Shown: positions 1 to 16,981, counted from the first letter of the stretch. The stretch is DNA of 64,000 nt from Actinomycetota bacterium (GCA_003132585.1 PKYG01000097.1:1790-65789); one strand, 5' to 3'. Numbers and translations: made by a program. The notes: a model not told the origin generated them from the sequence alone.

Positions 1-1
1 G

Positions 2-1165
2 GTGTTTACGGGTACGTTCGCGTCTGTCGTCTGGCACTACGTCAACGCCCAGTATTGGTTGAAGAGCTACCCGTCGAGCACGTTCCTCTTCAAGCCCCGC
101 TACCGCCTCGGGGACTTCTTCGAGGTCTACCGGAACGCACGGCACTTCGGCGCGGCCGGGCAGGAGAACCTCGTCTACTCGCCCGTATTCCACGTCTTCA
201 CCAAGGTGATGACGGTGTTCCCCGACAAGCTCGCGCTGGGGCTCGTCGTCACTGCCTTTCTGGCGACGCTCGCGGCGATCGCGTGGAACTGGCTGACGCC
301 CGATTTCGGCGGACCGCTGGCGCGTCTGCCGCACACGCTCGTGCTGACGCTCTTCGCCTATCCGGTGCTCGTCGCCGTCGATCGCGGCAACCTCGAGATG
401 GTCGTCTTCGTGCTCCTGGCGGCGTTCTTCTACCTGTACTACGCCGCGCACTCGCGCTGGGCGTGGCTGCCGCTCGCCCTGGCGATCGCCGCCAAGTACT
501 ACTGGGCGACGCTGCTCGTGCTGCCGCTCTGCGACAAGCACTATCGGCAGCTGGTCTACAGCGTCGCGGGGGCGATCGCGAGCACGCTCCTGAGCGTGCT
601 CGCGATCGCCTGGTCCTCCGGTGTGGGCATCGGCAAGGTGCTGTCGATCACGGGCGGCACACTCAGAGGCCACGTGGAGATGGACAACACGCTGTTCACG
701 GTGCAGCACGGGCATAGCCTCTGGGGCGTCGTCTGTGTCATCGATCGCTGGACGGGCGGCGACATCCAACTGTGGCTGCTTGGCCGCAACAATATTCTCC
801 GGCTCTACGTGGTCGCGTGCCTGCTCGCGTTTCTGTGGATCTGCGGGCGGCTGCTCACCCACGAGCTCGCCGACTGGCAGCGCGCCACGGTGCTCGTCGT
901 CTGCGCGCTGCTGCTGCCGATGGAGAACCACGACTACACGCTGATCCACCTCTTCCTGCCCCTGGCGCTCTTCGTGCTCGCCGCCGGCCGGGTGCGCCGC
1001 TGGTGGCTGGTGGCGCTGCTGTTTGTGCTGCTGCTCGTGCCCATGGACTACGTATACTTCTCGTTCCAGAACTACGCGAACAGCGACGTGAGCACGTCGG
1101 TGCTGGTCTACCCGGCGGCGCTGGTGGGGTTGCTGGTCGTGGCGCTGAGAGGAGAACGCTCGTGA
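2..1165 (+). CDS. Polytopic membrane protein, 5'-truncated by the window edge. Possibly a GT-C/DUF2029-like polyprenyl-phosphate-sugar-dependent glycosyltransferase or polymerase.
   Basis: Open frame from window start. Many hydrophobic/aromatic TM-like segments (e.g. LEMVVFVLLAAFFYLYYAAH, WLPLALAIAAKYYWATLLVL). Stop overlaps next gene start (GTGA). Confidence 0.4.
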   Translation: MFTGTFASVVWHYVNAQYWLKSYPSSTFLFKPRYRLGDFFEVYRNARHFGAAGQENLVYSPVFHVFTKVMTVFPDKLALGLVVTAFLATLAAIAWNWLTPDFGGPLARLPHTLVLTLFAYPVLVAVDRGNLEMVVFVLLAAFFYLYYAAHSRWAWLPLALAIAAKYYWATLLVLPLCDKHYRQLVYSVAGAIASTLLSVLAIAWSSGVGIGKVLSITGGTLRGHVEMDNTLFTVQHGHSLWGVVCVIDRWTGGDIQLWLLGRNNILRLYVVACLLAFLWICGRLLTHELADWQRATVLVVCALLLPMENHDYTLIHLFLPLALFVLAAGRVRRWWLVALLFVLLLVPMDYVYFSFQNYANSDVSTSVLVYPAALVGLLVVALRGERS

Positions 1166-2049
1166 AGATCATCGTGACGGGCGGCAGCGGGTTCGTCGGC
1201 GCCGGCCTGGTGGCCGGGCTCGGCGCCGACGGCTCCGGCCACGAGCTGCTGGCGCCGACCCACGCCGAGCTCGAGCTGCTCGACGCGGCGGCGGTGCGCG
1301 CCTACCTCGAGGCGCAGCGCCCGGACGCCGTCGTGCACTGTGCCGTGCGCCCCGGTCATCGCAACGCCGCCGACCCGAGCGGGCAGCTCGAGCACAACAC
1401 GCGGATGTTCTTCAACCTCGCGCGCTGCGCCGGTCTCTACAGCCGGATGGTGTTCATGAGCTCCGGCGCCGTGTATGCGGCCGGGCACTACGCGCCGCAG
1501 ATGGACGAGTCGTACTTCGACCGCTTCGTGCCCGTCGACGAGCACGGCTTCTCCAAGTACATCTGCGCGAAGTACGCCGAAGGCCGGCCCGACATCGTCG
1601 AGCTGCGGCCCTTCGGCGTCTTCGGCCGCGGCGAGGACTACGCCGTCCGCTTCATCAGCAACGCGATCTGCAAGACGCTCTTCGACCTGCCGATCACGAT
1701 CAAGCAGAACCGGCGACTCGACTACGTGTACGTGGACGACCTGGCGGCGGTCGTCGACTACTTCTTGCGCGAAGGGCCGCGCCACGGCGCCTACAACGTG
1801 TGCAGCGGCCGCGCCCCTGAGTTGCTCGAGCTCGCCGAGCTCGTGCTCAGTGTGGCCGGCAAGCAGCTGCCGATCGCCGTCGCGCAACCGGGCATGGGCG
1901 AGGAGTACAGCGGCAGCAACGCGCGGCTGCGCGCCGAGTACCGCGACCTGCGCCTGACCCCGCTGGAGGCGGCGGTGGGCGCGCTCTACGCCTGGTACGC
2001 GAAGCGCAAGAAGAGCCTCAACCGCGAGCTGCTGTTGACCGACAAGTAA
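1162..2049 (+). CDS. NAD-dependent epimerase/dehydratase (extended SDR; nucleotide-sugar epimerase or reductase).
   Basis: Starts MKIIVTGGSGFVGAGL (Rossmann GxxGxxG) at GTG 1162, 4-bp overlap with upstream stop. The 772..2049 ORF-track N-extension is an Arg-rich overlap artefact. Confidence 0.8.
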   Translation: MKIIVTGGSGFVGAGLVAGLGADGSGHELLAPTHAELELLDAAAVRAYLEAQRPDAVVHCAVRPGHRNAADPSGQLEHNTRMFFNLARCAGLYSRMVFMSSGAVYAAGHYAPQMDESYFDRFVPVDEHGFSKYICAKYAEGRPDIVELRPFGVFGRGEDYAVRFISNAICKTLFDLPITIKQNRRLDYVYVDDLAAVVDYFLREGPRHGAYNVCSGRAPELLELAELVLSVAGKQLPIAVAQPGMGEEYSGSNARLRAEYRDLRLTPLEAAVGALYAWYAKRKKSLNRELLLTDK

Positions 2050-2082
2050 ACGGAGCGGCAGGATGCTCCGAAAGAGGTTGAC

Positions 2083-3963
2083 GTGATCAAGGTCTCCGAT
2101 TACATAGCGCGGCGGATCGCCGAACTCGGTGTGAAGCACGTGTTCCTGGTCACTGGGGGCGGCGCCATGCATCTCGACGACTCGCTCAGCCGCCGCCCTG
2201 AGCTGACCCTGGTCTGCAACCATCACGAGCAGGCGTGCGCGATCGCCGCCGAGGGCTACGCGCGCATCGGCGAGACGATCGGCGTGACCGTCGTCACGAC
2301 GGGGCCGGGCGGCACGAACACGATCACCGGCGTGCTCGGCCAGTGGCACGACTCGGTGCCGGCGCTCTACGTGTCGGGCCAGGTGCGCTTCGACACGACG
2401 GTCGCCAGCACCAAAGTGCCGCTGCGCCAGCTCGGCGACCAGGAGGCGAGCATCGTCGAGCTGGTACGGCCGATCACCAAGTACGCCCAGATGGTCGTCG
2501 ACCCGCGCACCGTGTGCTACCACTTCGACAAGGCGGTGTACCTGGCGCGCAGCGGGCGCCCCGGCCCGGTGTGGCTCGACCTGCCGTTCGACGTGCAGGC
2601 GGCGCAGGTGGACGAGGCGTCGCTGCCGGGCTTCAACCCCGCGGTGGAGCCGATGGCGCGCGGGGTGGACGACGTCGACCTCGCGCGCGTGCGCCGGCAG
2701 GCGGCCGATCTGGTGGAGCGTCTGCGCACCGCCGAACGGCCGGTGCTGCTCGGCGGCGGCGGCGTGCGCGTCGCCGGGGCTGCCGCCGACTTCCGCACCC
2801 TGGCTGAGCGTCTCGGCATACCGGTGGTGACCGCCTGGAACGCGCACGACCTGATGTATGAGGACCATCCGCTGTACGTCGGCAGGCCGGGCACCGTCGG
2901 CGACCGCGCCGGCAACTTCGCCGTGCAGAACGCCGACCTGCTGATCTCGGTCGGCTGCCGGCTAAACGTGCGCCAGATCGGTTACGAGTTCAAGGCCTTC
3001 GCGCGCCATGCGTACAAGGCGATCGTCGACATCGACGCAGCGGAGCTGCGCAAGCCGACGATCGCCCCCGACATGCCGATCCGCAGCGACGCGCGCGTCT
3101 TCGTGCGGGAGCTGCGAGCCGCCCTGGATGCGGCCGGGTGGCAGGCGGCTGGGGGGCGCGCCGCCGGCGATGCTGCGGCAGACCGCTCCGCGAGCGGCGC
3201 GACGCCGGCCGACTGGCTCGCCTGGTGCCTGGAGCGCAAGCGCCGCTACCCCGTGGTGCTGCCCGAGTACCGGGCCGAGCGCGGCGCCGTGAATCCCTAC
3301 GTGTTCGTCGACGTGCTGGCGGAGCACCTCGAGCACAGCGATGTGGTCGTCTGCGCCAACGGCGCCGCCTGCGTCGTCGCCTTTCAGGCGCTGCGCCTCA
3401 AGGACGGCCAGCGCCTGCTCGGCAACTCCGGCACCGCCGGCATGGGCTACGACCTGCCGGCGGCGATCGGCGCGGCGTTCGTCTGCGGCCACCGCGTCAT
3501 CTGCCTCGCCGGCGACGGCAGCATCCAGATGAACCTGCAGGAGCTGCAGACGATCGTGCACCACCACCTGCCGATCAAGATCTTCGTCTTCAACAACGGC
3601 GGCTACCTCTCGATCCGCCAGACCCAGGACAACCTGTTCGCCGGCCACCGGGTGGGCGAGGGGCCGGCAACCGGCGTCAGCTTCCCCGACATGGTGGCGA
3701 TCGCCGAGGCTTACGGCATCGAAGCGACACGGGTAGAGTCGCACGAGACGCTCGACGAGGCGATCGGCGCGACGCTCGAGAGCCGCGGACCGGCACTGTG
3801 CGACGTGGTCATGCCGGCCGAAGCGGTCTTCGCGCCCAAGGTCGCCGCCGCGCGCCGGCCCGACGGGCGCATCGTCAGCAAGCCGCTCGAGGACATGTCG
3901 CCCCTGTTGCAGAGAGACGAGTTTGCCGACAACATGCTGGTACCGGAGTGGGAGGCGGAATGA
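2083..3963 (+). CDS. Thiamine-diphosphate-dependent enzyme of the acetolactate-synthase large-subunit family. YerE-like candidate two-carbon branch donor or carboligase.
   Basis: 626 aa. N-terminal Pyr domain (HVFLVTGGGAMHLDD) and C-terminal PP domain (GTAGMGYDLPAAIGAA...CLAGDGSIQMNLQEL). AAAGAGG SD 6 nt upstream of GTG 2083. Confidence 0.8.
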   Translation: MIKVSDYIARRIAELGVKHVFLVTGGGAMHLDDSLSRRPELTLVCNHHEQACAIAAEGYARIGETIGVTVVTTGPGGTNTITGVLGQWHDSVPALYVSGQVRFDTTVASTKVPLRQLGDQEASIVELVRPITKYAQMVVDPRTVCYHFDKAVYLARSGRPGPVWLDLPFDVQAAQVDEASLPGFNPAVEPMARGVDDVDLARVRRQAADLVERLRTAERPVLLGGGGVRVAGAAADFRTLAERLGIPVVTAWNAHDLMYEDHPLYVGRPGTVGDRAGNFAVQNADLLISVGCRLNVRQIGYEFKAFARHAYKAIVDIDAAELRKPTIAPDMPIRSDARVFVRELRAALDAAGWQAAGGRAAGDAAADRSASGATPADWLAWCLERKRRYPVVLPEYRAERGAVNPYVFVDVLAEHLEHSDVVVCANGAACVVAFQALRLKDGQRLLGNSGTAGMGYDLPAAIGAAFVCGHRVICLAGDGSIQMNLQELQTIVHHHLPIKIFVFNNGGYLSIRQTQDNLFAGHRVGEGPATGVSFPDMVAIAEAYGIEATRVESHETLDEAIGATLESRGPALCDVVMPAEAVFAPKVAAARRPDGRIVSKPLEDMSPLLQRDEFADNMLVPEWEAE

Positions 3964-4775
3964 ACGAACTCGAACGGCGAATGGTCGAAGTGCTCGGCGA
4001 CCTGCGCGAGAACCATCACGTGAACGGAGTCAAGGCGGAGTTCGAGGCCGAAGGCACACGACTCGAAGAGGCGCTGCGGCTGAAGGAGGTCGTGTCGGCC
4101 GCCGGCCTCGGCCTGACGCTCAAGATCGGCGGCTGCGAGGCCGTGCGCGACATGTACGAGGCGCGCGTGATCGGTGTCGAGCGCATCGTCGGGCCGATGG
4201 TGGAATCGCCCTATGCGCTCACCAAGTACCTGCGCGCCGTCGCCCTGGCGTTCCCGCCGGACGAGCGCGAGCAGGTCGATTTCGCGATCAACGTGGAGAC
4301 GCTGACCGGATTCGCGAACTTCGACACGATGCTGGCGCTGCCGGAGATCGCGCAGCTCGACGGCATCGTGCTCGGCCGCGTCGACATGACCGGCTCGATG
4401 GGGCTGACGCGTGAAGACATCAACGACCCGCGCGTGTTCGCGATCGCCGAGGAGCTCTTCGTCAAGGCGAAGACGAAGAACCTGGAGACGGCGCTTGGCG
4501 GCGGCGTCGGCGCCGAGTCACTGCCGTTCATGCGCGAGCTGCCGGCGGGCACGATCGACCGCTACGAGACGCGCAAGGTGATCTTCAAGTGCCCCGAGGC
4601 GCTCGCCGACGACGCCGACAAGGGCATCCTCAAGGCGGTCGGCTTCGAGCTGATGTGGCTGAAGAACAAGCGCAGCTTCTACGGCCTGATCGCCGACGAA
4701 GACGCCAACCGCCTGCAGATGCTGCAGTCGCGCTACGATCACCTGATCGAGGCCGCCGGCGGCCGCTACAACTGA
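3960..4775 (+). CDS. HpcH/HpaI-family aldolase-like TIM-barrel protein (2-keto-3-deoxy-acid aldolase / citrate-lyase beta-like).
   Basis: ATG 3960 overlaps upstream stop (ATGA). VGPMVESPYALTKY and DGIVLGRVDMTGSMGL resemble HpcH LVPMVQNADEA / DGVFIGPADLSADMGY. The long upstream extension of ORF 3138..4775 is an artefact. Confidence 0.5.
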   Translation: MNELERRMVEVLGDLRENHHVNGVKAEFEAEGTRLEEALRLKEVVSAAGLGLTLKIGGCEAVRDMYEARVIGVERIVGPMVESPYALTKYLRAVALAFPPDEREQVDFAINVETLTGFANFDTMLALPEIAQLDGIVLGRVDMTGSMGLTREDINDPRVFAIAEELFVKAKTKNLETALGGGVGAESLPFMRELPAGTIDRYETRKVIFKCPEALADDADKGILKAVGFELMWLKNKRSFYGLIADEDANRLQMLQSRYDHLIEAAGGRYN

Positions 4776-4804
4776 CGGCCGCCGGCGCGCAAGGAGAGTG
4801 AACC

Positions 4805-5473
4805 GTGAACGGACGCACGGCGCTGGTCACAGGCGCATCCCGGGGTATCGGGTCGGCGATCGCGCAACGCTTCGCGGAGCTCGGCGCGCGTGTGCTGGCG
4901 CCGTCGCGCGCCGAGCTCGATCTCGCTGACGACGACTCGGTTGATGGGTACCTGGCCGACCTGCAGGGACCGGTCGACATCCTCGTCAACAACGCCGGTG
5001 TCAACTCCCTGGGCGCGGCCGCCGAGGCGAGCGACGAGGAGATCGCGGAGACGCTGCACGTGAATCTCGTGTCGCCGATGCGGCTGGCGCGCGCCGTCGC
5101 TCCGGTGATGGCGGCGCGCGGCTACGGCCGCATCCTCAACGTGAGCTCGATCTGGGCCGTGGTCGCCAAGCCGCGCCGCTTCGCCTATGCCGCCAGCAAA
5201 GCCGGTCTCAACGGCATGACACGCACACTGGCGGTGGAGGTGGCGTCTGCCGGCGTGCTGGTCAACGCCATCGCTCCCGGCTTCGTCGACACCGAGCTCA
5301 CGCGGGCCAACAACACGCGCGCCGAGCTCGCCGCCATCGTATCGGGCATCCCGCTGGGGCGGCTCGCGCAGCCGGCGGAGATCGCGGAGCTCGCCGCCTT
5401 TCTCTGCTCGTCGCGCAACTCGTTCGTCACCGGCCAAGTGATCGTCGCCGACGGGGGCTACACGTGCCTGTAG
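4805..5473 (+). CDS. Short-chain dehydrogenase/reductase (classical SDR).
   Basis: TALVTGASRGIGSAIA Rossmann motif. Catalytic Y-x3-K pattern AYAASKAGL. AAGGAGAG SD before GTG 4805. Confidence 0.8.
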   Translation: MNGRTALVTGASRGIGSAIAQRFAELGARVLAPSRAELDLADDDSVDGYLADLQGPVDILVNNAGVNSLGAAAEASDEEIAETLHVNLVSPMRLARAVAPVMAARGYGRILNVSSIWAVVAKPRRFAYAASKAGLNGMTRTLAVEVASAGVLVNAIAPGFVDTELTRANNTRAELAAIVSGIPLGRLAQPAEIAELAAFLCSSRNSFVTGQVIVADGGYTCL

Positions 5474-6537
5474 CCGGGTTGGCCGTACGGTCGCTGTTCG
5501 GCGACTACCGTGTGGAGCTCGCCGAATCGCCGGGTTTCGTCGGCGAGCTCGCCGCTCTGCCGCAGTCGTTCGTCATCGTCGACGAGAACGTATGGCGGTG
5601 TCACCGCGACGGCGTGCTCCGCCCGCTCGCCGATGCCGATGTGCACGTGCTGCCGATCGCCGAACAGCGCAAGGTGTTGGCGAGCGTCGAGGAGCTCTAC
5701 GCGGCGATGACGGCGCGCGCGGCCAAGCGCAACACCACGGTGATCTCGATCGGCGGCGGCATCACGCAGGACCTGACCGGCTTCCTCGCGTCGACCATCT
5801 ACCGCGGTGTCCCCTGGATCTTCGTGCCGACCACGCTGCTCGCGCAGGCGGACAGCTGCATCGGCAGCAAGACGTCGCTCAACTTCCGCCAGTTCAAGAA
5901 CCTCATCGGCACGCTTTACCCGCCCGAGCGCGTGCTTGTCTACCCGGGGTTCGTCGCCACGCAGGAGGAAGAGGATTACTTCAGCGGGCTCGGTGAAGTG
6001 CTGAAGCTCCACTTGATCGGCGGCGAGGAGGCGGCCGCGGTGTATGCGCGCGAAGCGCCCGCCCTGACCGGCCGCCGACCCGCCGCCGTCGGCGACGCGG
6101 TCTGGCGCTCGCTCGAGATCAAGCGCGCCTTCATCGAGGAGGACGAGCGCGACACGGGCCGCCGCCGGTGGCTCAACTTCGGCCACTGTTTCGGCCACGC
6201 GCTCGAGTCCGCTTCGGACTTCGCGCTGCCGCACGGTCAGGCGGTCGTCGCAGGGATGATCCTCGCCGGGCTGGTGGCGCGCGCCCGCGGGCGGCTCTCG
6301 GCGGCGACGGAAGAGCGCCTGCGGCGCGCGCTTCTGCGGCCGGCCCTGGTCGTGCCGCCCGACCGTCTCGCGCTCGACGCCGACACCGTGATCGGGGCGA
6401 TGGGGCAGGACAAGAAGCGTACGGGGCCGAAGCTGGCACTGGTGATGCTCTACGACGGCTTCGCGATGGAGGTCGTCGACGATCTCGGTGAGGATGAGGC
6501 CAGAGAAGCCTTGCGCGAGCTCCAGGGGGTGCTGTAA
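5464..6537 (+). CDS. 3-dehydroquinate-synthase-like (DHQS/sugar-phosphate cyclase superfamily) enzyme.
   Basis: IGGGITQDLTGF ... VPTTLLAQADSCIGSKTSLNFRQFKNLIGTLYPP matches DHQS metal/NAD-binding core (PTTLLAqvDSSvGGKT). GTG start overlaps SDR stop. Confidence 0.7.
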   Translation: MPVAGLAVRSLFGDYRVELAESPGFVGELAALPQSFVIVDENVWRCHRDGVLRPLADADVHVLPIAEQRKVLASVEELYAAMTARAAKRNTTVISIGGGITQDLTGFLASTIYRGVPWIFVPTTLLAQADSCIGSKTSLNFRQFKNLIGTLYPPERVLVYPGFVATQEEEDYFSGLGEVLKLHLIGGEEAAAVYAREAPALTGRRPAAVGDAVWRSLEIKRAFIEEDERDTGRRRWLNFGHCFGHALESASDFALPHGQAVVAGMILAGLVARARGRLSAATEERLRRALLRPALVVPPDRLALDADTVIGAMGQDKKRTGPKLALVMLYDGFAMEVVDDLGEDEAREALRELQGVL

Positions 6538-7284
6538 GTGGTCAGCGCCGTGGCCTTCGACCTCGACGGCATGCTCTACGTCGGCGAGCAGGCGCTGCCC
6601 GGCGCGGTCGAGGTCGTGGGCTGGTGCCGGCGACGCGGGTTGCGCGTGCTCTACCTGACCAATTCGACCGTGCGCACGCGCCAGCAGATCGCCGACAAGC
6701 TGGCGGCGATGGGCTTTGCGGCCGCGATAGAGGACGTGTACTGCTGCAGCAACGCGGCGGCGCGTTTCGCGCGGGAGAGCGGGTACTGGCAGGTGTACGT
6801 GATCGGTGCGCGCGCCCTGCGCGCCGAGATGACGGCGCAGGGCGTGCCGCTCACCGAGCAGATCGCGGCCGCCGACGCGCTCGTCGTCGGTCACGACCCC
6901 GAGTGGCACCTCGAGCTGTTCGGCGGATACACGCTGGCGCACGACGCCGCGTTCGTCGCCTGCAACCGCGACATGACCTATCCGGCGGCCGACGGTCGCC
7001 GGCTGCCGGGCTGTGGCGTCGTCGTCGAGCGCGTCGAGCGCGCCGTCGGCCGGCGCGCCAACGTCGTCGTCGGCAAGCCGGCGACGTACATGCTCGAGCT
7101 GATCGAGCGCGATCTCGGCTTCGCCGCGGCCGATGTGCTCGTCGTCGGCGATATGGAGGAGTCCGACATCGCGATGGCGCGCCGCGCCGGGGCGCCGGCG
7201 GCGCTCGTGGCAGGGGAGAGCGCGGTCGAAGTCGAAGGTGCAATGGTGATCGAATCGTTGGCGAAGCTCGAGGAGCTGTTGTGA
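6538..7284 (+). CDS. HAD-superfamily (subfamily IIA, NagD-like) sugar-phosphate phosphatase.
   Basis: N-terminal FDLDGMLY (DxDG) motif. Later VVGKPATYML and LVVGDMEESDIAMARRAGA motifs. Confidence 0.7.
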   Translation: MVSAVAFDLDGMLYVGEQALPGAVEVVGWCRRRGLRVLYLTNSTVRTRQQIADKLAAMGFAAAIEDVYCCSNAAARFARESGYWQVYVIGARALRAEMTAQGVPLTEQIAAADALVVGHDPEWHLELFGGYTLAHDAAFVACNRDMTYPAADGRRLPGCGVVVERVERAVGRRANVVVGKPATYMLELIERDLGFAAADVLVVGDMEESDIAMARRAGAPAALVAGESAVEVEGAMVIESLAKLEELL

Positions 7285-8330
7285 TCGACACGCCCGCCAA
7301 CCCGCTGGAGCCGCTCGGCCACGCCGAGCGCCGGGTCACCGACATGGGCGAGCGCGAGACGGCGCGGCGGGCGACGCGCGAAGCCGCGCACGGCGGCGGC
7401 CGCAAGCTCGTCAGCATCGTCACGCCGGCCTATAACGAAGAGGAGTGCATCGACGAGCTCTGCCGGCGGCTGCAACAGGTCTTCGCCGACAATCCCGACT
7501 ACGACTTCGAGGCGGTGGTTGTCGAGAACGGCTCGACCGACGGCACGCTGGCCAGGCTCACGGCGATCCGCGCGGCGGACGCGCGCTTCAAGATCCTCCG
7601 GCTGGCGCGCAACTTTCGCATGGACGGCGGCATCACCGCCGGGCTCGACTACGTCTCCGGCGACGCCTGCGTGATCATGACCGCCGACCTGCAGGACCCG
7701 CCGGAGCTGATCGGCGAGTTCATCCGTAAGTGGGAGGAGGGCTTCGACAACGTCTACATGAAGGTCACCCGGCGTGTCGGCACCGGCCCCGTGCGGCGGA
7801 TGAACGCGCAGATCTTCTACTGGCTGCTCGGGCGCATGACCGGCGGCGTGTTCCCGCGCAACGTCAGCGACTACCGCCTGGTCGACCGCAAGGTCTACGA
7901 GACCGTCAAGGGCATGCACGAGCGCAACCGCTTCATGCGCGGCATGTTCTACTGGGCGGGCTTCTCGAGCGTCGGCATCGAGCACGAGCGCCTGCCGCGC
8001 TTCGCCGGCGAGACCAAGGCGTACACGCTGCAGGTGATCGAGCTGGCGATCAAGGGCATCCTCAGCTTCAGCTACGTGCCGCTGCGGTTGATCACCTGGA
8101 TGGGCCTGGCGATGAGCGGCTTCGCCTTCGCCTTTCTCATCTACGTCGTCGTGCGCGCCTTCGTCTGGGGCGTGCCGTTCGCCGGGTTCGGCACGATCAT
8201 GGGCGTGATGCTCCTGCTCTTCGGCTTTCTCTTCACGATGCTCGGCGTGGTCGCCGAGTACGTCGGCCTCATCTACGACGAGGTCAAACAGCGGCCGAAC
8301 TACATCGTCCGCGATACCTTCGGCCTCTAG
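7281..8330 (+). CDS. GT2 polyprenyl-phosphate sugar synthase (GtrB/ArnC/DPM1-like) with C-terminal TM helices.
   Basis: VSIVTPAYNEE...VVVENGSTDGT...DADLQDPPE GT-A motifs plus two C-terminal TM segments. AGGAG SD 5 nt before GTG 7281 (alt ATG 7344). Long 6624..8330 extension rejected. Confidence 0.75.
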   Translation: MIDTPANPLEPLGHAERRVTDMGERETARRATREAAHGGGRKLVSIVTPAYNEEECIDELCRRLQQVFADNPDYDFEAVVVENGSTDGTLARLTAIRAADARFKILRLARNFRMDGGITAGLDYVSGDACVIMTADLQDPPELIGEFIRKWEEGFDNVYMKVTRRVGTGPVRRMNAQIFYWLLGRMTGGVFPRNVSDYRLVDRKVYETVKGMHERNRFMRGMFYWAGFSSVGIEHERLPRFAGETKAYTLQVIELAIKGILSFSYVPLRLITWMGLAMSGFAFAFLIYVVVRAFVWGVPFAGFGTIMGVMLLLFGFLFTMLGVVAEYVGLIYDEVKQRPNYIVRDTFGL

Positions 8331-8339
8331 AGCTCGCGC

Positions 8340-10544
8340 ATGGACCGCGTACCCGGTCTCCTGAAGCGGCACGAACAGCAGGTGCGCTACCTGCTGGTCG
8401 GCGGCTGGAACACGCTCTTCGGCTACGGCGTGTACGCGCTCCTCTACTGGCTGCTGCGCCGGCACATGTCGTACGTGCTGATCCTCGTGCCCGCCAACGT
8501 GATCGCGATCACGCAGAACTACTTCGGCTACAAATTCGTCGTCTTTCGCACGCACGGCAACTATCTGCGCGAGTACTTCAAGACCTACCTCGTGTACGGC
8601 GCCGCGTTCGTGGTCAATCTGGGCCTGCTGCCGCTGCTGCACGAGGTCGCCGGCTTGCCGGTGCTGGTCGCGCAGGCGGTGGCGATGGCGGTCACCGTGG
8701 TGCTCAGCTACTTCTTCTACAAGTACTTCGCCTTCCGGCCGGCGGACGGCGCAGGGGAGCGGTGGTCGCCGGCGGGGGAGCGCTGGTCGAGGCTCGACAT
8801 CGGTCTCGGCGCCGTCGCCGTCTTCGTCTTTCTCGCGGCGCTCGCCTTCACCTACAGCCGCCTCTACCGCGGCATCGACCTGCTCGACGAGAGCTTCTAC
8901 ATCGCCGTGCCGTATCGCTTCGCCCTCGGCGCGCGGCCGTTCGTCGACGAGGTCAACCTGCTGCAGCTCGCCGGGCTCGTCGTCTACCCGTTCGTCAAGG
9001 CGTTCGTGGCGATCAGCGGTGGGGCGACGGGGTTGATGCTCTATACGCGACACCTGTATCTGCTCTTCGCCCTCGGTGTCGCGACCTCGGTCTTCTGCCT
9101 GCTGCGTACGCTGATGCGCTGGCAGTACGCGGCGCTGGCGGCGACGCTCTACGTGAGCTACTTCGCCTTCGACCTGCCGCAACTCAACTACAACACGCTC
9201 GCCTCCGGGTTCCTGACGCTCGGCGTGGTCCTCGGGCTGTGGACGATCCTGCACGGACGCAGCCACTGGTACATGGTGGCGGCGGGCGTCTGTCACGGCG
9301 TCGCCGTGTTCGTGTTTCCGACGCTGATCGTGATCGTGCCGCTGTACGCGATCGCGGCGGCGCTCGTCAGCGCCGGGCGCCGGCGCGCGGCGTGGGCGTA
9401 CGTTGCCGGCGCCGGAGCCGCAGGCGCTGCCGGCGCCATCGTGCTCGTCTCCTTCGGCGTCGGCAATGTGCTGCGCAGCGTGCGCTTTCAGCTCGCCGAC
9501 GCCAAGCGCGTCGGCCAGGGCGGCGGGTTCGCGAAGGTCGGCAACGTGATCTCGGGCTGGGAGCGGCTGATGATGTCGCGCGCGCACCTGCTGGTCATTG
9601 CCGCGGTGCTCTATCTCATCTACCGGCGCTACCCGCGCGCGCGCCTGCTGCTGCTCGCCTACGTGCCGCCGTCGCTCTTCATGGGCGGCCTGCGCTGGCT
9701 GCTCGAGGCGGCGGGCTTTGCGATCGCCTTCATGTTCGTCAGCTTCTTCCTGCTGCTCTTCACCGATGCGCGCGATCGCAGCCTCGTCGTCAAGCTCGCC
9801 GCGTGGGGCCTCGTGCCGGCGCTCGCCGCCGGCATCATGACCGGGTACACGAGCGCCTCCAGCTTCGTCAACAGCGAGGTGGGGTTCCTCCCGGCGATGC
9901 TCTGTTGCGCGGCGCTGCTGGTGCTTGTCGCCGCGCCGCGCCCCGGCGAGCCGCAGGACCGGCTGGCGCGGGCGCTGCCGTGGCTCACGGCGGCGGCGCT
10001 CACGCTCACCGTCGCGGCGACGATCGTCTACCAGTTCGCGTACATCCCGCGGATGGTGCCGTACCGCACGCTCACAGTGCAGATGCGCGCGGGCCCCTAT
10101 GCGGGCATCTACACGACGGTCCCGCGCGCCGCCTTTCTCACCAAGTTCAGCGCCGACCTCGCCACGCTCGTGCGCCCCGACGAGCGCATCATCGTCTTCA
10201 ACGGCCTGCCGGCGGCGTACCTGATGTGGCCGCACGCCGCCGCCGCCAACACCGTGTGGATCACCACGTCCGGCGGGGCGCCGGGCGTGCTGCCGCCGGC
10301 CACCTGGGACTACTTCAAGCAGGCGGGCGTCGTGCCCGATGTCGTGATCCGCATCGCCAACCCTGCCGAGGCGACGCCGTGGGCGGTCGCGCACCAATTG
10401 AACGGGGGATTGCCGTACCCGCTCGTGCTTACCCGTACCGACGTGCTGCCGAACTACATCGTCTACCGGCGACCGGCGTGGTTCTCGATCGACACACTGC
10501 CGGCGCAGCCGACGCTGCCGCAGTCACCGGCGGCGACTCCCTAG
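8340..10544 (+). CDS. GtrA-like domain fused to a large GT-C-type polytopic membrane glycosyltransferase (ArnT/PMT-like).
   Basis: N-terminal ~130 aa LLVGGWNTLFGYGVYALLYW...YFGYKFVVF = GtrA family (4 TM), followed by ~600 aa with >12 predicted TM helices. ATG 8340. Confidence 0.7.
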   Translation: MDRVPGLLKRHEQQVRYLLVGGWNTLFGYGVYALLYWLLRRHMSYVLILVPANVIAITQNYFGYKFVVFRTHGNYLREYFKTYLVYGAAFVVNLGLLPLLHEVAGLPVLVAQAVAMAVTVVLSYFFYKYFAFRPADGAGERWSPAGERWSRLDIGLGAVAVFVFLAALAFTYSRLYRGIDLLDESFYIAVPYRFALGARPFVDEVNLLQLAGLVVYPFVKAFVAISGGATGLMLYTRHLYLLFALGVATSVFCLLRTLMRWQYAALAATLYVSYFAFDLPQLNYNTLASGFLTLGVVLGLWTILHGRSHWYMVAAGVCHGVAVFVFPTLIVIVPLYAIAAALVSAGRRRAAWAYVAGAGAAGAAGAIVLVSFGVGNVLRSVRFQLADAKRVGQGGGFAKVGNVISGWERLMMSRAHLLVIAAVLYLIYRRYPRARLLLLAYVPPSLFMGGLRWLLEAAGFAIAFMFVSFFLLLFTDARDRSLVVKLAAWGLVPALAAGIMTGYTSASSFVNSEVGFLPAMLCCAALLVLVAAPRPGEPQDRLARALPWLTAAALTLTVAATIVYQFAYIPRMVPYRTLTVQMRAGPYAGIYTTVPRAAFLTKFSADLATLVRPDERIIVFNGLPAAYLMWPHAAAANTVWITTSGGAPGVLPPATWDYFKQAGVVPDVVIRIANPAEATPWAVAHQLNGGLPYPLVLTRTDVLPNYIVYRRPAWFSIDTLPAQPTLPQSPAATP

Positions 10545-11281
10545 GAGCTCGACTCCGGGAACGCGTCGGCGACGGCTTTGCGGACGAAATCGAGCAGGTC
10601 GCCAGTCTTGTACAGGAAGCCCCTGATGCCGGCAGCCCCGGCCGCGGCCATGTCGCTCACCTTGTCGCCGATGAAGATGCAGTCGGAGGGCGCGGCGGCG
10701 AAGTCGGCCAGCGCCTGCAGAAGGAGTCCCGGTTGCGGCTTGCGCGCGGGGCAGTCGAGCCGGTAGGCGTCGAGCCCCGCCTCCGGATGGTGCGGGCAGT
10801 AGTACACAGCGGCGAGCGCCGCGCCGTCGGCGGCCAGGCGCTCGCCCACCCAGCCCATGAACTGCGCGAACTCCGCCTCCGTGTACAACCCGCGGCCGAT
10901 GCCCGCCTGGTTGGTGACGACGACGACGGTGAAGCCCCAGCGGTCGAGCCAGCGCACGGCCTCGACCGCGCCGGGCATCCAGACGAAGTCCTCGGGGCGG
11001 TGCACGTAGTCTCCGTCGACGTTGAGCACGCCGTCGCGGTCGAGGAAGGCGAGGCGGAGCTGGGCGGCGGCGACTCCGCCGCTGCCGGCGCCGATGGGAC
11101 GCGGATCGGTCGTGTCCCCCGAAACGATGGAGAGAGGAGGAGCCGGGGCACCGGAGCCCGCGGCCGCAGCGGTCACAGCCGCGGGCGCCGCGGCAGATGC
11201 GATCGCGGCAGCCGCAGCCTGAGCTGCCGCGGCCGCCGCGGCCGCGATCGCCTGAGCTGCCGCGCACGGCCGGATCAACAT
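10541..11281 (-). CDS. gmhB: D-glycero-D-manno-heptose 1,7-bisphosphate phosphatase (HAD, GmhB). N-terminal ~70 aa Ala-rich low-complexity stretch of doubtful reality; alt GTG start near 11176.
   Basis: FLDRDGVLN (DxDG), VVVVTNQAGIGRG, CPHHPE...CxCRKPxPG and FIGDKVSDMAAA motifs typical of GmhB. Confidence 0.7.
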   Translation of the reverse strand: MLIRPCAAAQAIAAAAAAAAQAAAAAIASAAAPAAVTAAAAGSGAPAPPLSIVSGDTTDPRPIGAGSGGVAAAQLRLAFLDRDGVLNVDGDYVHRPEDFVWMPGAVEAVRWLDRWGFTVVVVTNQAGIGRGLYTEAEFAQFMGWVGERLAADGAALAAVYYCPHHPEAGLDAYRLDCPARKPQPGLLLQALADFAAAPSDCIFIGDKVSDMAAAGAAGIRGFLYKTGDLLDFVRKAVADAFPESSS

Positions 11282-11844
11282 AGCGAGGCCTCGGCAAGCT
11301 CGCTGAGGATGTGCTCGATCACAATGTGTGCCTCCTGAGTGCGCGCGGTGTCGGTGCTGGGCACGGCGAGGAGCACGTCGCAGACGCCGGCGAGCCGGCC
11401 GCCGCCCTCGCCGGTGAGCGCGATCACCCTGAGGCCGCCGGCGCGCGCCGCGGCGGCGGCCTTGAGCACATTCGCGCTCTCGCCGCTGGTGGAGATCGCG
11501 AGCAGCACGTCGCCGGCGCGGCCGAGCGCCGCGACCTGCCGCGCGAAGACCTCGTCGAAGCCGTGGTCGTTGGCGACCGCCGTGACGATCGACGTGTTGG
11601 TCGTGAGTGCGATCGCCGGCAGGGCGCGGCGCTCGAGCCGGAAGCGGCCGACGAACTCGGCGGCGACGTGCTGGGCGTCGGCGGCGGAGCCGCCGTTGCC
11701 GCAGACCAGCAGCTTGCCGCCGGCCGAGAGCGAGTCGTGGATGAGCGCGTGCGCCCGGCAGATCTCGGCGCTCAGCGCCGAGACTGCCGCCATCACGCGC
11801 TCATGCTCCGCCAGGCGCTTGGCGACGATGCTCACACCGTCCAT
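11275..11844 (-). CDS. gmhA: Phosphoheptose isomerase (SIS domain).
   Basis: MDGVSIVAKRLAEHERVM... LLVCGNGGSAADAQHVAAEF... AISTSGESANVL SIS motifs. True start ATG at 11844. Longer ORF-track extension is an overlap artefact. Confidence 0.8.
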   Translation of the reverse strand: MDGVSIVAKRLAEHERVMAAVSALSAEICRAHALIHDSLSAGGKLLVCGNGGSAADAQHVAAEFVGRFRLERRALPAIALTTNTSIVTAVANDHGFDEVFARQVAALGRAGDVLLAISTSGESANVLKAAAAARAGGLRVIALTGEGGGRLAGVCDVLLAVPSTDTARTQEAHIVIEHILSELAEASLC

Positions 11845-12845
11845 GAGCGCACCCCCTCGTGCGTGAACTTGAAGTTGGCGATCTGCGCGCCGCCGCGCTG
11901 CAGCATGGCCTGCACGGCGAAGCGGCTGCCCGGCTTGCAGATGAAGAACATGAAGCCGCCGCCGCCGGCGCCGGGGATCTTGCCGCCGAGGGCGCCTGCC
12001 TTGCGCGCCTCGGCGTACAGCTCGTCGATCGGCGCCGTACTGATGCCGTCGGCCATCTGCTTCTTCGCCTCCCACGCCTCGTGCAGCAGCTCGCCGAGCG
12101 CCGGCACGCGGCCGAGCAGGAGCGCGTTCTTCATCTCGTAGGCGAGCGCCTTGAGGCGGTCCATGGCGGCGATCGCCGGGGCGTTGCCGGAGCGGTAGTT
12201 CTCCACCTGGCGGTCGATGATGTGCGCCGAGAAGTGGGTGCCGCCGACGTGCGCGAAGAGCAGGCTGTACTCGAGCTCGTAGAGCGTCTCCGGGCGCAGA
12301 CGCAGGGCGTTGACGATCGCGTGACCGTCGGCGAACTCGATGAAGTTGAAACCGCCGAAGGCGGTGGCGTACTGGTCCTGATGGCCACCGCCGATACCCG
12401 CCTCGATGCGCTCGATCTGATAGGCCTTCTCGGCGATCTGGTAGTCGTCGAGCGGCAGGCGCAGGTGCTGCGCCAGCGCCGCGATCAGCGCGACCGTGAC
12501 CGCCGAGGACGAGCCGAGGCCCGAACCGGGCGGCGCGTCGTTGTGGAGCAGCACCTCGAGACCGTCACTGAGACCGTGCTCCCGGCGAAAATGATCGAGC
12601 ACGGTCTTGGCCAGGTCGAGCTGCCCGTCGTAGACGAACTCCTCGTCGACCGAGCAGGCGACGCTGGAGTCGTAGTCGAGGCTCGAGATGCGCAGGTCCG
12701 GGCCGCCGGCGTCGAGCGTGGCGTAGGCGTAGCGGTCGATACTGGCGCTGAGCACGGCGCCGCCACGCTCGTCGCAGTACGGCGACACGTCGGTGCCGCC
12801 GCCGCCGAAGCTGATGCGCAGTGGCGCTCGCGCGCGGATGGTCAC
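11832..12845 (-). CDS. hddA: D-glycero-D-manno-heptose 7-phosphate kinase (GHMP kinase).
   Basis: GHMP motif PPGSGLGSSSAVTVALIAAL. GTG start at 12845 with GGAGGA SD 9 nt upstream. 13-bp overlap with gmhA. Confidence 0.8.
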   Translation of the reverse strand: MTIRARAPLRISFGGGGTDVSPYCDERGGAVLSASIDRYAYATLDAGGPDLRISSLDYDSSVACSVDEEFVYDGQLDLAKTVLDHFRREHGLSDGLEVLLHNDAPPGSGLGSSSAVTVALIAALAQHLRLPLDDYQIAEKAYQIERIEAGIGGGHQDQYATAFGGFNFIEFADGHAIVNALRLRPETLYELEYSLLFAHVGGTHFSAHIIDRQVENYRSGNAPAIAAMDRLKALAYEMKNALLLGRVPALGELLHEAWEAKKQMADGISTAPIDELYAEARKAGALGGKIPGAGGGGFMFFICKPGSRFAVQAMLQRGGAQIANFKFTHEGVRSWTV

Positions 12846-12895
12846 GCAGGGTCCTCCAATCGAGAAACGTGCATGGGCGCATTGTAGCAGGCGGG
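12707..12895. repeat. Copy A of a ~190-bp direct repeat: hddA 5' end (first ~46 codons) plus its RBS and upstream leader.
   Basis: ~94% identical to 14305..14493 by eye (CGTAGGCGTAGCG.TCGATACTGGCGCTGAGCACGGCGCCGCC...GTCACGCAGGGTCCTCCAATCGAGAAACGTGCATGGGCGCATT). Confidence 0.8.
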
Positions 12896-12967
12896 TGAGT
12901 GGGGGGCAGTGGTCGAGAAAGTGCCCACGAACTTCGAGTAGGTCTCAGCGCGCACTAGCGCGCTGCG

Positions 12968-14251
12968 TCAGCGAAGGGGCAGTGCGTAGCAGACCGTGTC
13001 GTCGATCTCCCGGCTGTAGTGCCTGAGGTACACACCGCTGCGCGGCATCAGCCGCTTGATGAGTAGAGGTATCGTCCACAGGTCGGTGGGAAAGTGATAG
13101 GCGGAGACGGCAAGGGTGGGTGCGGCGTCCGCGAGCAGGCGCGCCGCACCCAGGAGAGCCTCAGCCTCGGCGCCCTCGATGTCCATCTTGATCAACGACG
13201 GCGCGCGGCGGCCGTCGAAGTACTCGTCGAGGCCGACGACGGGCACGCTCTCACCTCCCAGCTCGTCGTCGCCGAGCAGCCGTGAGCCCGTACCAGCAGT
13301 GCTGAGGAGGCGCGCGCTGCTCATGTGGCGGGCGAGACCTGCCCGTATGGCGGTGATGCGCGCAGGGTCGGTTGCCGCGACATCGGCGAGTTTCGCAAAG
13401 CTCGCCCGGTCCGGCTCGAAGGCGACGTACGAGCGAAACCGCCCTGTGCAGCACACCAGGAACGATCTGAGGGTATCGCCGACGTAGGCACCTCCGTCGA
13501 CCACAACTTCGTCGACGCCGAGCTCATGCACGCTCGAATCGAAGTAGATGGTCGCCGCCGACGTGATCTCGTCCAGGCGCTCCTTGTCAAGGCTGACATA
13601 GAATGCGAGCTTGCCGGCGAACACGCGGCGTGACTCTTCGTCGGCGAGGAGGGCCTGCGCATCCTCGATGGCGGTGCGGTTGGCGGTGTCTGTGGCTGCC
13701 GCCCAGGCGCCCTCGTACTCCCGCGCCCGGAAGATCTCAGGCAGTCGCAGGTTCAAGTAGCCTGCCGGAACGACGGCCTCGCAGCCGAGCGCACGCAGAT
13801 CTTCACAGATCGCGGAGTCGAACATGGTGCTGGCTACGAGGACGGCGTCCCCTGAGTGGGCCGCGGCGACCTCGGTGGGGGAGAGTACCGGCAGGCCGTC
13901 GATGCGGCCGCCCTGCACCGCAGGGTCGCTGTCACCGAAAGCGACGACGCGCGCACCTTGCGCCGTCAGGCCCGCGGCTGCCTGACGGCCCATCCGGCCG
14001 GCTGGATAGACCACCGCAGGACGACGCCCGGCGAGAACCTCGTCAAGCACGCCGTAGCGTCTGTCCAGGGCTGCGCGCCACACTCGCGGGTCGCAGTCAA
14101 GGAGAGCGGCGAGGCGCGAGCCCGTGCTTGGGGCGTGCGCATCGCCGCGCGAGGACGAGCCTTCGTTCACGGCATCGTCGCCGGTGACAGACACTCGCCG
14201 ACGACGGAACACGGGCTCGCACGCCCGACCGACGTATGTCCGATGATGCAT
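12968..14251 (-). CDS. FkbM-family SAM-dependent methyltransferase with an N-terminal Rossmann-like domain (putative sugar O-methyltransferase).
   Basis: C-terminal VVDGGAYVGDTL...IKMDIEGAEAEAL...VSAYHFPTDLW matches FkbM (Methyltransf_21) family. ATG at 14251. Confidence 0.7.
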   Translation of the reverse strand: MHHRTYVGRACEPVFRRRRVSVTGDDAVNEGSSSRGDAHAPSTGSRLAALLDCDPRVWRAALDRRYGVLDEVLAGRRPAVVYPAGRMGRQAAAGLTAQGARVVAFGDSDPAVQGGRIDGLPVLSPTEVAAAHSGDAVLVASTMFDSAICEDLRALGCEAVVPAGYLNLRLPEIFRAREYEGAWAAATDTANRTAIEDAQALLADEESRRVFAGKLAFYVSLDKERLDEITSAATIYFDSSVHELGVDEVVVDGGAYVGDTLRSFLVCCTGRFRSYVAFEPDRASFAKLADVAATDPARITAIRAGLARHMSSARLLSTAGTGSRLLGDDELGGESVPVVGLDEYFDGRRAPSLIKMDIEGAEAEALLGAARLLADAAPTLAVSAYHFPTDLWTIPLLIKRLMPRSGVYLRHYSREIDDTVCYALPLR

Positions 14252-14266
14252 GATTCCATGGCCGTG

Positions 14267-14452
14267 CTATATCACGGGGCTTACGAGTCTCGGTGCGAGC
14301 AATACGCCACCGGCGTCGAGCGTCGCGTAGGCGTAGCGATCGATACTGGCGCTGAGCACGGCGCCGCCCCGCTCCTCGCAGTACGGCGACACGTCGGTGC
14401 CGCCGCCGCCGGAGCTGATGCGCAGTGGCGCTCGCGAGCGGATCGTCACGCA
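14267..14452 (-). pseudogene. Truncated duplicate of the hddA 5' end (hddA'). Potential 61-aa leader ORF directly upstream of the FkbM methyltransferase gene.
   Basis: [48 protein letters not shown] matches hddA residues 1-47, then diverges to a stop 15 nt before the fkbM start. Confidence 0.6.
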
Positions 14453-14493
14453 GGGTCCTCCAATCGAGAAACGTGCATGGGCGCATTCTAACA
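14305..14493. repeat. Copy B of the ~190-bp hddA 5'-end/leader direct repeat.
   Basis: See copy A. Includes the same GGAGGA SD and GTG start context. Confidence 0.8.
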
Positions 14494-14609
14494 GGCACAG
14501 GCTGACGAAGTTCTGATACCATTCGGCCGGATTCTGGATGAGGCTTCCAAGTTGGTTGCCCTGACATTCGTGAGAGGAACGTGCTCCTGAGCGTCCCAAG
14601 CGAGAAGCG

Positions 14610-16959: not shown

Positions 16960-16981
16960 CGCCCGACCTGCTGGTGAGCCG

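Follow-up and report, generated by a model that had tools for sequence, protein, structure and literature searches.

The subject of this study is a cassette of six genes at positions 1162-7284 of a 64,000-nt stretch of DNA from an Actinomycetota bacterium (GCA_003132585.1 PKYG01000097.1:1790-65789; hereafter the window), a candidate for the synthesis and transfer of a branched sugar of the caryophyllose type. Protein families were assigned by Pfam and NCBIfam profile searches of the proteins encoded in the window, using the curated cut-offs. All open reading frames (ORFs) of the cassette are located on the + strand and are tightly coupled. A GTGA overlap (1162-1165) connects the first gene of the cassette to a preceding glycosyltransferase (GT) gene. 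Within the cassette, an ATGA overlap (3960-3963), a 10-nt overlap (5464-5473) and a junction with a 0-nt gap (6537/6538) occur, and a further GTGA overlap (7281-7284) leads over to the following glycosyltransferase gene. The cassette and its immediate neighbours are the following:

2..1165 (+): GT87-like polytopic membrane glycosyltransferase; Pfam GT87, 27.4 bits (cut-off 25)
1162..2049 (+): extended short-chain dehydrogenase/reductase (SDR), 295 aa; Pfam Epimerase PF01370, 1.8e-29; TGGSGFVG site for binding of nicotinamide adenine dinucleotide (NAD), YxxxK
2083..3963 (+): YerE-like thiamine diphosphate (ThDP) carboligase, 626 aa; TPP_enzyme N, M and C domains; GDG motif
3960..4775 (+): divergent class-II HpcH/HpaI-like pyruvate aldolase, 271 aa; Pfam HpcH_HpaI, 25.6 bits
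4805..5473 (+): classical SDR, FabG-like, 222 aa; adh_short_C2, 6e-53; TGASRGIG and YAASK motifs
5464..6537 (+): 3-dehydroquinate synthase (DHQS)-like AroB paralogue, 357 aa; DHQ_synthase and DHQS_C; best NCBIfam family TIGR04425
6538..7284 (+): haloacid dehalogenase (HAD)-IIA phosphatase, 248 aa; Hydrolase_6; TIGR01460 HAD-SF-IIA, 105 bits (cut-off 100)
7281..8330 (+): GT2 polyprenyl-phosphate glycosyltransferase, GtrB/ArnC/PgfS-like, 349 aa; PgfS 230 bits, ArnC 135 bits; Pfam Glycos_transf_2
8340..10544 (+): GtrA::GT-C fusion, 734 aa; GtrA_DPMS_TM, 3e-18, residues 16-132

A public metagenome contig, L085, corresponds to window positions 1-14775 with 0 mismatches in 14,775 nt (window position 1 is L085 position 6042), and the same genes were placed on it by an independent gene caller. 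On this contig the GT87-like gene, the 5' end of which lies outside the window, is present at its full length of 415 aa (L085 5959-7206). Directly upstream of this gene, past the left edge of the window, L085 encodes RfbF (glucose-1-phosphate cytidylyltransferase; TIGR02623, 425 bits, cut-off 300), RfbG (CDP-glucose 4,6-dehydratase; TIGR02622, 466 bits, cut-off 278) and RfbH (also called E1; NF011936, 681 bits, cut-off 423). By family assignment, these three are the enzymes leading to cytidine diphosphate (CDP)-4-keto-3,6-dideoxy-D-glucose, the acceptor of YerE-type enzymes.

The cassette is embedded in one 64-kb surface-glycan region that spans the rest of the window and contains genes for a Wzm/Wzt-type ABC transporter, many glycosyltransferases and methyltransferases, aminotransferases and two phosphoglycosyl transferases as well as a Wzz/kinase-like gene. 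The G+C content is 58-62% at 20000-34000 and 42000-50000, where blocks of glycosyltransferase and methyltransferase genes are located, compared to 68-72% in the cassette; this drop suggests that the locus is mosaic. An earlier note on this DNA had described six coupled genes followed by a GtrB/GtrA::GT-C set and had taken them for a surface-glycan sugar pathway. Its ORFs, families and overlaps were borne out by the profile searches and the independent gene caller, the downstream genes were recovered as a GT2 protein with PgfS/ArnC matches and a protein with a GtrA domain and a GT-C fold, and the assignment to surface-glycan synthesis was upheld.

Enzyme families and active sites

The best match of the ThDP enzyme in the PDB was entry 8rph, which is JanthE, a YerE-like carboligase making tertiary alcohols. 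The score of 443 bits compares with 253 bits for the best acetolactate synthase (ALS), and on the ALS equivalog TIGR00118 the protein scored 333 bits, under the cut-off of 538. By these comparisons the ThDP enzyme is a YerE-like carboligase and not an ALS, in agreement with the YerE-type branching activity suggested earlier. We propose that it decarboxylates a long 2-keto acid and adds the product to C-4 of CDP-4-keto-3,6-dideoxyglucose. The extended SDR, the gene of which adjoins the ThDP gene, has intact cofactor-binding and YxxxK motifs. Among PDB entries it is closest to NDP-ketosugar reductases and epimerases (E 1e-12 to 1e-9), and it is proposed to be a putative YerF-like reductase of the ketone at C-1' of the branch.

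The aldolase was recognized by Pfam HpcH_HpaI at a borderline score, 25.6 bits at a cut-off of 25. An AlphaFold2 model of the protein (predicted local distance difference test, pLDDT, 94) had HpaI, HpcH and YfaU as nearest folds, at 14% identity and a template-modelling (TM) score of about 0.55. Two stretches of the aldolase, NVET and RVDM, align with VQVE and GPADL of PDB 7v8t, which form the metal-binding Glu/Asp stretch, and E113 and D142 are invariant across the aldolase family. Since the fold match to HpaI reaches a TM score of only about 0.55, the protein appears to represent a distant subfamily without a solved member; judged from the model, it lies on a remote branch of the pyruvate-aldolase group that is structurally uncharacterised. 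We propose it as the putative maker of a 3-deoxy-2-ulosonate phosphate.

The DHQS-like protein scored 357.5 bits with TIGR04425 and 258.3 bits with aroB (TIGR01357), the latter under its cut-off of 305. TIGR04425 is named in NCBIfam as an AroB-related putative sugar phosphate phospholyase and bears the label '(cyclizing)'. The homologues in other cassettes reached 326-401 bits with TIGR04425 and 247-271 bits with aroB. TIGR04425 was the best family for all homologues tested, two of which lie above its cut-off (L016, 400.2 bits; L044, 400.9 bits). The similarity of the window protein to solved DHQS structures is about 40%, with scores of 124-154 bits; other cyclases scored 119 bits (ValA, 4p53), 97 bits (2-deoxy-scyllo-inosose synthase, DOIS) and 66 bits (DDGS, 5tpr). 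By sequence, the sedoheptulose-7-phosphate cyclases and DOIS are more distant from the DHQS-like protein than is DHQS.

The active site was examined in an alignment of 39 family members with three solved DHQS sequences. The DHQS active-site residues, which contact NAD, metal and 3-deoxy-D-arabino-heptulosonate 7-phosphate (DAHP), are all invariant in 39 of 39 DHQS-like members. In the numbering of the window protein they are R114, D130, K136, N146, E178, K181, K220, R234, N238, H241, H245, H257 and K317. We take these to be equivalent to R130, D146, K152, N162, E194, K197, K250, R264, N268, H271, H275, H287 and K356 of the DHQS from Aspergillus nidulans; the roles of these residues and the mapping onto the A. 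nidulans enzyme reportedly go back to Carpenter et al. in 1998, and K250 and R264 presumably bind the carboxylate end of the substrate. Fixed differences from DHQS in the family are G102Q, F118W, S132C and T242C, and the corresponding motif changes are DSS to DSC, GHT to GHC and RGVxF to RGVxW. As all DHQS residues are kept and the sedoheptulose-7-phosphate cyclases and DOIS are more distant, the alignment indicates that the substrate is most likely DAHP-like, that is, a 3-deoxy-2-ulosonate with a terminal phosphate. The DHQS-like protein is proposed to be a putative NAD+/metal-dependent phosphate-eliminating lyase acting on the aldolase product. The HAD-IIA phosphatase encoded next to it displays its motifs in the order DLDG, GKP, GD-x4-D.

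With the GT2 protein, the GtrA domain and a GT-C transferase, a three-component Gtr-type set is complete downstream of the cassette. In the C-terminal part of the GtrA fusion (594 aa), Pfam found no match even at E = 5. In an AlphaFold2 model of the whole protein (predicted TM score 0.78), the C-terminal domain mostly has a pLDDT > 85, and 14 of the 14 best Foldseek matches of the model were GT-C enzymes (STT3, AftA, DPY19, ArnT); the predicted GT-C fold of the fusion comes from structure prediction alone. A loop motif, G178-x-D180-L-x-x-E184, is conserved in the fusion. The earlier suggestion that the product is lipid-linked and then transferred by a GT-C enzyme holds as probable, and the lipid-linked transfer step appears to be conserved across phyla with different transferases.

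At two loci of other phyla, a gene for a large membrane protein again comes after the GT2 gene. In a locus from Bacteroidales (L034 12449-15022), the GT2 gene after the cassette is followed by a gene for a GtrA fusion with C-terminal TPR repeats, and in one from Coriobacteriia (L083 12598-14430) by a gene for a DUF6311 membrane protein.

Conservation of the cassette and exchange of its modules

A scan of species-representative genomes for the aldolase yielded 255 matching stretches, of which 80 loci were kept for analysis. The kept loci originate from Actinomycetota, Chloroflexota, Bacteroidota, Desulfobacterota, Elusimicrobiota, Margulisbacteria, Spirochaetota, Alphaproteobacteria and others, and the aldolase is 64-82% identical across phyla among them. 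The wider aldolase family comprises 266 clusters at 50% identity (E <= 1e-30). A divergent subfamily, 44% identical to the window protein, also occurs in a block of SDR, DHQS, ThDP and aldolase genes.

The genes of the cassette were found clustered in genomes of many phyla, an arrangement that goes far beyond chance. Among the 44 loci in which the aldolase gene is flanked by no less than 7 kb on its 5' side and 4 kb on its 3' side, a ThDP gene was present in 43, an extended SDR gene in 35 and rfbH in 32; RfbF and RfbG were each encoded in 29 of the 44, and a GT2 gene was located within 9 kb in 32.

The region 3' of the aldolase gene was compared in those 67 loci of other genomes in which the sequence extends far enough on this side. 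In 37 of these, the aldolase gene is followed by SDR and DHQS-like genes, in 15 by a HAD-IIA gene and in 11 by a HAD-IA gene; one locus has an SDR gene alone and three have none of these. The classical SDR travels with the DHQS-like gene in all 37 loci, the locus with SDR alone being additional, and a DHQS-like gene together with a HAD gene occurred in 0 of 67. The simplest reading of this interchange between the SDR/DHQS-like pair and a phosphatase is that the intermediate on the aldolase side is phosphorylated and has to be freed of its phosphate. The aldolases themselves were alike in the two locus types: those of DHQS-type and HAD-type loci could not be told apart by any alignment column, and the mean identity was 68% within and 66% between types. 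Thus, the aldolase probably catalyzes the same reaction in both, and the two types would diverge downstream of it.

The window is the sole case seen with a HAD-IIA gene beside SDR and DHQS-like genes, an arrangement found in 0 of the 80 genome loci. The window HAD-IIA protein is 40-46% identical to the HAD-IIA proteins encoded 3' of the aldolase gene in the HAD-type loci L003, L004, L006 and L010. It is absent from the closest relative, L081, which has 90% aldolase identity. The same arrangement recurs on public metagenome contigs (nine contigs carry the aldolase, of which L086 and L087 are shown), indicating that the co-occurrence is not an assembly artefact. HAD-IIA beside the SDR/DHQS-like pair might yield two variants of the branch.

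Adjoining the cassette, divergently oriented genes at 10541-12845 (-) encode a GmhB-like phosphatase (148 bits, cut-off 150), GmhA (211 bits, cut-off 209) and an HddA-like GHMP kinase (265 bits, cut-off 600), with no nucleotidyltransferase beside the trio. The whole trio is shared with L081; in the 80 loci an HddA-like match was obtained only in L050 and a GmhA-like match only in L078. As it is nearly absent from the 80 loci, we concluded that the trio is not part of the core cassette. Heptose 7-phosphate, considered as a substrate of the aldolase, was dropped because the trio is complete only in L081.

Proposed pathway, alternatives and the wider locus

Caryophyllose is a C12 sugar, 3,6-dideoxy-4-C-(D-altro-1,3,4,5-tetrahydroxyhexyl)-D-xylo-hexopyranose, with a side chain at C-4 that is acyclic, 2'-deoxy and has a CH3 end (PMC5706390). 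In Mycobacterium marinum, knockouts of MMAR_2331, MMAR_2332 and MMAR_2333 accumulate LOS-II*, a lipooligosaccharide (LOS) without caryophyllose (PMC5706390). According to the RefSeq product names in a supplementary table (PMC12395582), MMAR_2327 is a GT87 protein, MMAR_2329 a '3-dehydroquinate synthase family protein', MMAR_2331 a member of the 'aldolase/citrate lyase family', MMAR_2332 ThDP-binding, MMAR_2333 a GT2 protein, MMAR_2334 RfbF, MMAR_2335 RfbH and MMAR_2336 a CDP-glucose 4,6-dehydratase. The parts list of MMAR_2327-2336 equals that of the window genes together with the upstream RfbF/G/H genes.

Peptides encoded by published primers were also compared. The antisense primer for in vitro transcription of mmar_2331 encodes GGCEAM, which is identical in five of six positions to aldolase residues 57-62, a stretch that comprises the invariant G57-A61 motif; for a random hexamer the chance of such a match is about 0.24%. 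A quantitative PCR primer encodes VHFELL, with four of six residues matching VGFELM (aldolase 227-232), and the third primer peptide, RWKVLN, is similar to RWKVL at the C terminus of P0330, a protein of the divergent subfamily. GGCEAM, VHFELL and the RWKVL part recur in members of the divergent family with about 44% identity. Primer peptides of MMAR_2329 showed chance-level matches only (three of six residues). A homologue search with an alphaproteobacterial aldolase as query returned no named Rhodopseudomonas or Mycobacterium protein among the best 120. The papers that could be searched contained no role assigned to MMAR_2329 and nothing relevant linking dehydroquinate synthase to YerE or LOS.

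For long acyl-branched sugars, a 'unifying scheme' has been proposed and partly demonstrated by Steitz et al. in 2022 (PMC9306805). In this scheme the functionalised 2-keto acid made by an aldolase is coupled to CDP-4-keto-3,6-dideoxyglucose by a YerE-like ThDP enzyme, and the branch is then completed by a reductase (PMC9306805). As the side chain of caryophyllose is acyclic and 2'-deoxy and ends in CH3, its donor, read backwards, would be 3,7-dideoxy-hept-2-ulosonic acid.

We propose the following pathway for the window cassette. RfbF, RfbG and RfbH, as assigned by family, would make CDP-4-keto-3,6-dideoxy-D-glucose. The HpcH-like aldolase would join pyruvate to a phosphorylated aldose, most simply D-erythrose 4-phosphate, to give a DAHP-like 3-deoxy-heptulosonate 7-phosphate. 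The AroB paralogue may then run the first half of the DHQS reaction, that is, NAD+-dependent oxidation at C-5, beta-elimination of the phosphate and re-reduction. The classical SDR would reduce the resulting 6-keto group and yield a 3,7-dideoxy-heptulosonate with a methyl end; alternatively, HAD-IIA would simply dephosphorylate the intermediate and leave a CH2OH end. The YerE-like ThDP enzyme, the substrates of which are predicted from those of ErwE, MMAR_2332 and MyGE, would decarboxylate the 2-keto acid and attach the resulting acyl anion to the CDP-sugar at its ketone on C-4, and the extended SDR would reduce the new side-chain ketone at C-1' in the manner of YerF. To judge from folds and families, the GT2 protein would load the sugar onto polyprenyl phosphate, and the GtrA::GT-C fusion and/or the GT87-like protein would transfer it to an acceptor glycan outside the membrane. 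The product predicted from pyruvate and tetrose 4-phosphate after phosphate elimination and reduction matches the caryophyllose chain exactly.

Taken together, the cassette very probably belongs, as a class, to the caryophyllose-type branched-sugar cassettes. That it represents, in full, an operon for the biosynthesis and transfer of a caryophyllose-type sugar, a 3,6-dideoxyhexose with a long polyhydroxyalkyl chain at C-4, we consider probable. The specific role of the DHQS-like/SDR pair, removal of the phosphate leaving a methyl end, is put forward tentatively and with slightly less than even confidence. More speculative still is the idea that the TIGR04425-type AroB paralogue is non-cyclising and writes the CH3 terminus together with the SDR, so that SDR/DHQS-like and HAD would be 'tail-editing' modules for CH3 and CH2OH, respectively, and the organism would make two branch variants.

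Several points weigh against this proposal. The organism is known from metagenomes only, with functions read from sequence, and the aldehyde substrate of the aldolase is a guess. An E3 reductase partnering RfbH was not found in the window or in the 6 kb upstream. The DHQS-like protein does not reach the TIGR04425 cut-off of 400, although this is its best-scoring family. The enol-pyranose freed by true DHQS is said by Bartlett and Knowles to cyclise spontaneously to dehydroquinate, and since all catalytic residues are kept, the paralogue might still cyclise. The presence of both modules in the window is not predicted by a simple either/or model. In addition, M. marinum was compared by RefSeq product names and three primer-derived peptides, not by full sequences, and its aldolase apparently falls into the subfamily of only about 44% identity.

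The same end product could be formed in another order. The DHQS-like protein and the SDR would turn free tetrose 4-phosphate into 4-deoxy-tetrose, the aldehyde '28' postulated by Steitz et al. (PMC9306805), and the aldolase would then add pyruvate to the unphosphorylated aldehyde; the phosphatase of HAD-type loci would also act ahead of the aldolase. The mutually exclusive SDR/DHQS and HAD modules fit this order equally well, and the aldol step is indeed drawn with a non-phosphorylated aldehyde by Steitz et al. (PMC9306805). However, the aldolases lack residue differences between the locus types, although the aldehyde would differ. The DHQS-like family also keeps all residues of the DAHP site, and a C4 substrate would not need the presumed carboxylate-binding residues K250 and R264. 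We therefore regard this order as unlikely.

A true cyclase would lead to a product with a carbocycle in the style of carbasugars, bradyrhizose or caryose, either as a free quinate-like acid or with the ring closed on the side chain after ThDP coupling. The retention of all DHQS catalytic residues and the '(cyclizing)' in the NCBIfam name of TIGR04425 would fit such an enzyme, as would Burkholderia caryophylli, which makes both caryophyllose and the carbocyclic sugar caryose. Ring closure at C-2, however, would destroy the 2-keto acid needed by the ThDP enzyme and leave the SDR/DHQS-type loci without a donor, and in 26 of 67 loci the place of the DHQS-like/SDR module is taken by a simple phosphatase. 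K250 and R264, kept in the family and presumably carboxylate-binding, argue against a bulky CDP-sugar as substrate, and the sedoheptulose-7-phosphate cyclases scored below DHQS (ValA 119 and DDGS 66, compared to 154 bits). Moreover, the locus of M. marinum contains a DHQS-family gene and gives an acyclic side chain. A cyclase in the cassette is improbable on these grounds. The carbocyclic, bradyrhizose-like or simple C8-C10 chain-extended product envisaged by the earlier note was not supported either, the product of the M. marinum counterpart being a C12 branched sugar with an acyclic chain.

A yersiniose-like C2 branch would arise if the ThDP enzyme used pyruvate, which YerE and JanthE accept, and if the aldolase, SDR, DHQS-like and HAD proteins made an unrelated second component. 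This is very improbable, as no other partner of the ThDP gene is as conserved and as constant as the aldolase, caryophyllose is lost in M. marinum when the aldolase gene is knocked out (PMC5706390), and ErwE and MMAR_2332 prefer gamma-hydroxy keto acids as donors (PMC9306805). A chance neighbourhood of housekeeping AroB and IlvB enzymes, which the earlier note had named as the finding that would overturn its reading, and of a phosphoglycolate phosphatase is suggested by superficial family names alone and can practically be dismissed, given scores under the AroB (258, cut-off 305) and ALS (333, cut-off 538) equivalog cut-offs, the lack of an ALS small subunit and of shikimate genes, the position of the genes within the 64-kb glycan locus and their clustering with RfbF, RfbG and RfbH across phyla. 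A phosphonate pathway (PEP mutase, Ppd, Fe-ADH) was also considered and dropped, as the ThDP enzyme is YerE-like, the aldolase a TIM-barrel HpcH-like protein, and RfbF/RfbG/RfbH are linked.

Further features were noted in the remainder of the window. A second candidate for ThDP-dependent sugar branching is located at 21798-23854 (+), where a pair of pyruvate dehydrogenase E1-alpha-like and E1-beta-like proteins is encoded (TIGR03182, 282 bits; PRK09212, 260 bits). The pair belongs to the two-subunit enzymes of the 'alpha-KADH2' type, to which a review (PMC12247030) ascribes the addition of acetyl branches to NDP-ketosugars in antibiotics. The E1 pair is surrounded (14610-21416 and 24855-26078) by a 4,6-dehydratase-like gene, two DegT-family genes (one RfbH-like, 235 bits), an epimerase/reductase gene and three methyltransferase genes, which suggests a second branched deoxysugar in the same locus.

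An IS21-type element at 35161-37152 (-), consisting of IstB (3e-73) and a gene with an HTH_7 domain, lies between paralogous pairs of Wzy_C-like and GT2 genes at 31513-34184 and 37364-39804; the identity is 42% between the two Wzy_C-like copies and 36% between those of GT2. A GT10 (fucosyltransferase-like) C-terminal domain is encoded at 45720-46811 (+; 1e-12), and a radical SAM/SPASM protein at 52565-53539 (+) among GT4 glycosyltransferases and a DegT aminotransferase. Two Bac_transf phosphoglycosyl transferases, 39% identical to each other, flank a Wzz/GNVR/P-loop (BY-kinase-like) gene (55943-57433 (+), 59205-60878 (+), 60933-62402 (-)); as these two transferases are paralogous, the locus may start two different glycans.

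Comparison with known systems

To our knowledge, only a few bacteria, namely M. marinum, B. caryophylli and Rhodopseudomonas palustris, are known to make caryophyllose or one of its relatives. Caryophyllose of M. marinum sits on lipooligosaccharides that shape macrophage uptake. The occurrence of the aldolase in many phyla indicates that bacterial surfaces may commonly be decorated with long-branched 3,6-dideoxy sugars that have been overlooked. If our proposal is true, caryophyllose-like C12 sugars are encoded in many phyla, mostly known from metagenome-assembled genomes, and an enzyme of the DHQS fold stops before ring closure. The comparative pattern gives a concrete proposal for the function of TIGR04425, a curated family to which no function is assigned, and for that of MMAR_2329. 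The proposal also names an origin for the deoxygenated end of the caryophyllose chain, a point not settled in the published scheme.

In the pathways of yersiniose A (YerE/YerF) and erwiniose (ErwE/ErwF/ErwI/ErwJ) and in the case of JanthE, an acyl anion is added to CDP-4-keto-3,6-dideoxyglucose in a ThDP-dependent step, which is followed by ketoreduction, and in the erwiniose pathway, as proposed here, an aldolase supplies the extended 2-keto acid. ErwI, however, is a BphI-type aldolase with an acetaldehyde dehydrogenase partner, whereas the window aldolase is divergent and HpcH-like; its partnership with phosphate-removing enzymes points to a longer branch derived from a sugar phosphate.

AroB shares about 40% similarity at the level of solved DHQS with the DHQS-like protein, and the residues of the NAD, metal and DAHP sites are common to both. 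In contrast to AroB, the DHQS-like protein is encoded in a glycan operon, is always paired with a classical SDR and can be swapped with a phosphatase, and its proposed product is acyclic. The HAD-type loci are analogous to the synthase/phosphatase systems for 3-deoxy-D-manno-octulosonate (KDO) 8-phosphate and sialic acid 9-phosphate, where a C3 unit and a sugar phosphate give a 3-deoxy-2-ulosonate phosphate, which then loses its phosphate to a HAD phosphatase. This likeness is one of analogy, as the synthases of those systems are unrelated and dependent on phosphoenolpyruvate, and their product is activated as a CMP-sugar instead of being decarboxylated onto a sugar.

Gtr-type and ArnC/ArnT-type glycosylation systems use the same components as the window, a GT2 polyprenyl-phosphate glycosyltransferase, a GtrA-family protein and a GT-C transferase. 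In the window, by comparison, GtrA is fused to the GT-C transferase and a second gene of GT-C type, the GT87-like one, is present, and a branched C12 sugar linked to CDP would serve as donor.

The closest counterpart by gene families is the caryophyllose sub-locus (MMAR_2327-2336) of the LOS cluster of M. marinum. The gene order differs, the mycobacterial aldolase apparently belongs to the more distant subfamily, and the window adds the HAD-IIA phosphatase and the GtrA::GT-C fusion. In addition, unlike the acyltrehalose LOS locus of M. marinum, the window looks like a polysaccharide locus with an ABC transporter and Wzy-type genes. Given this parts list and the published scheme (PMC9306805), the view that the enzyme combination is without precedent was not supported. 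We conclude that the cassette is probably an uncultured-actinobacterial member of the known caryophyllose-type pathway and not a new kind of pathway, and that it is probably not a carbocycle pathway; what is new here is the spread of the cassette across phyla, the swap between a phosphatase and the DHQS-like/SDR pair, and the function suggested for TIGR04425 and MMAR_2329.

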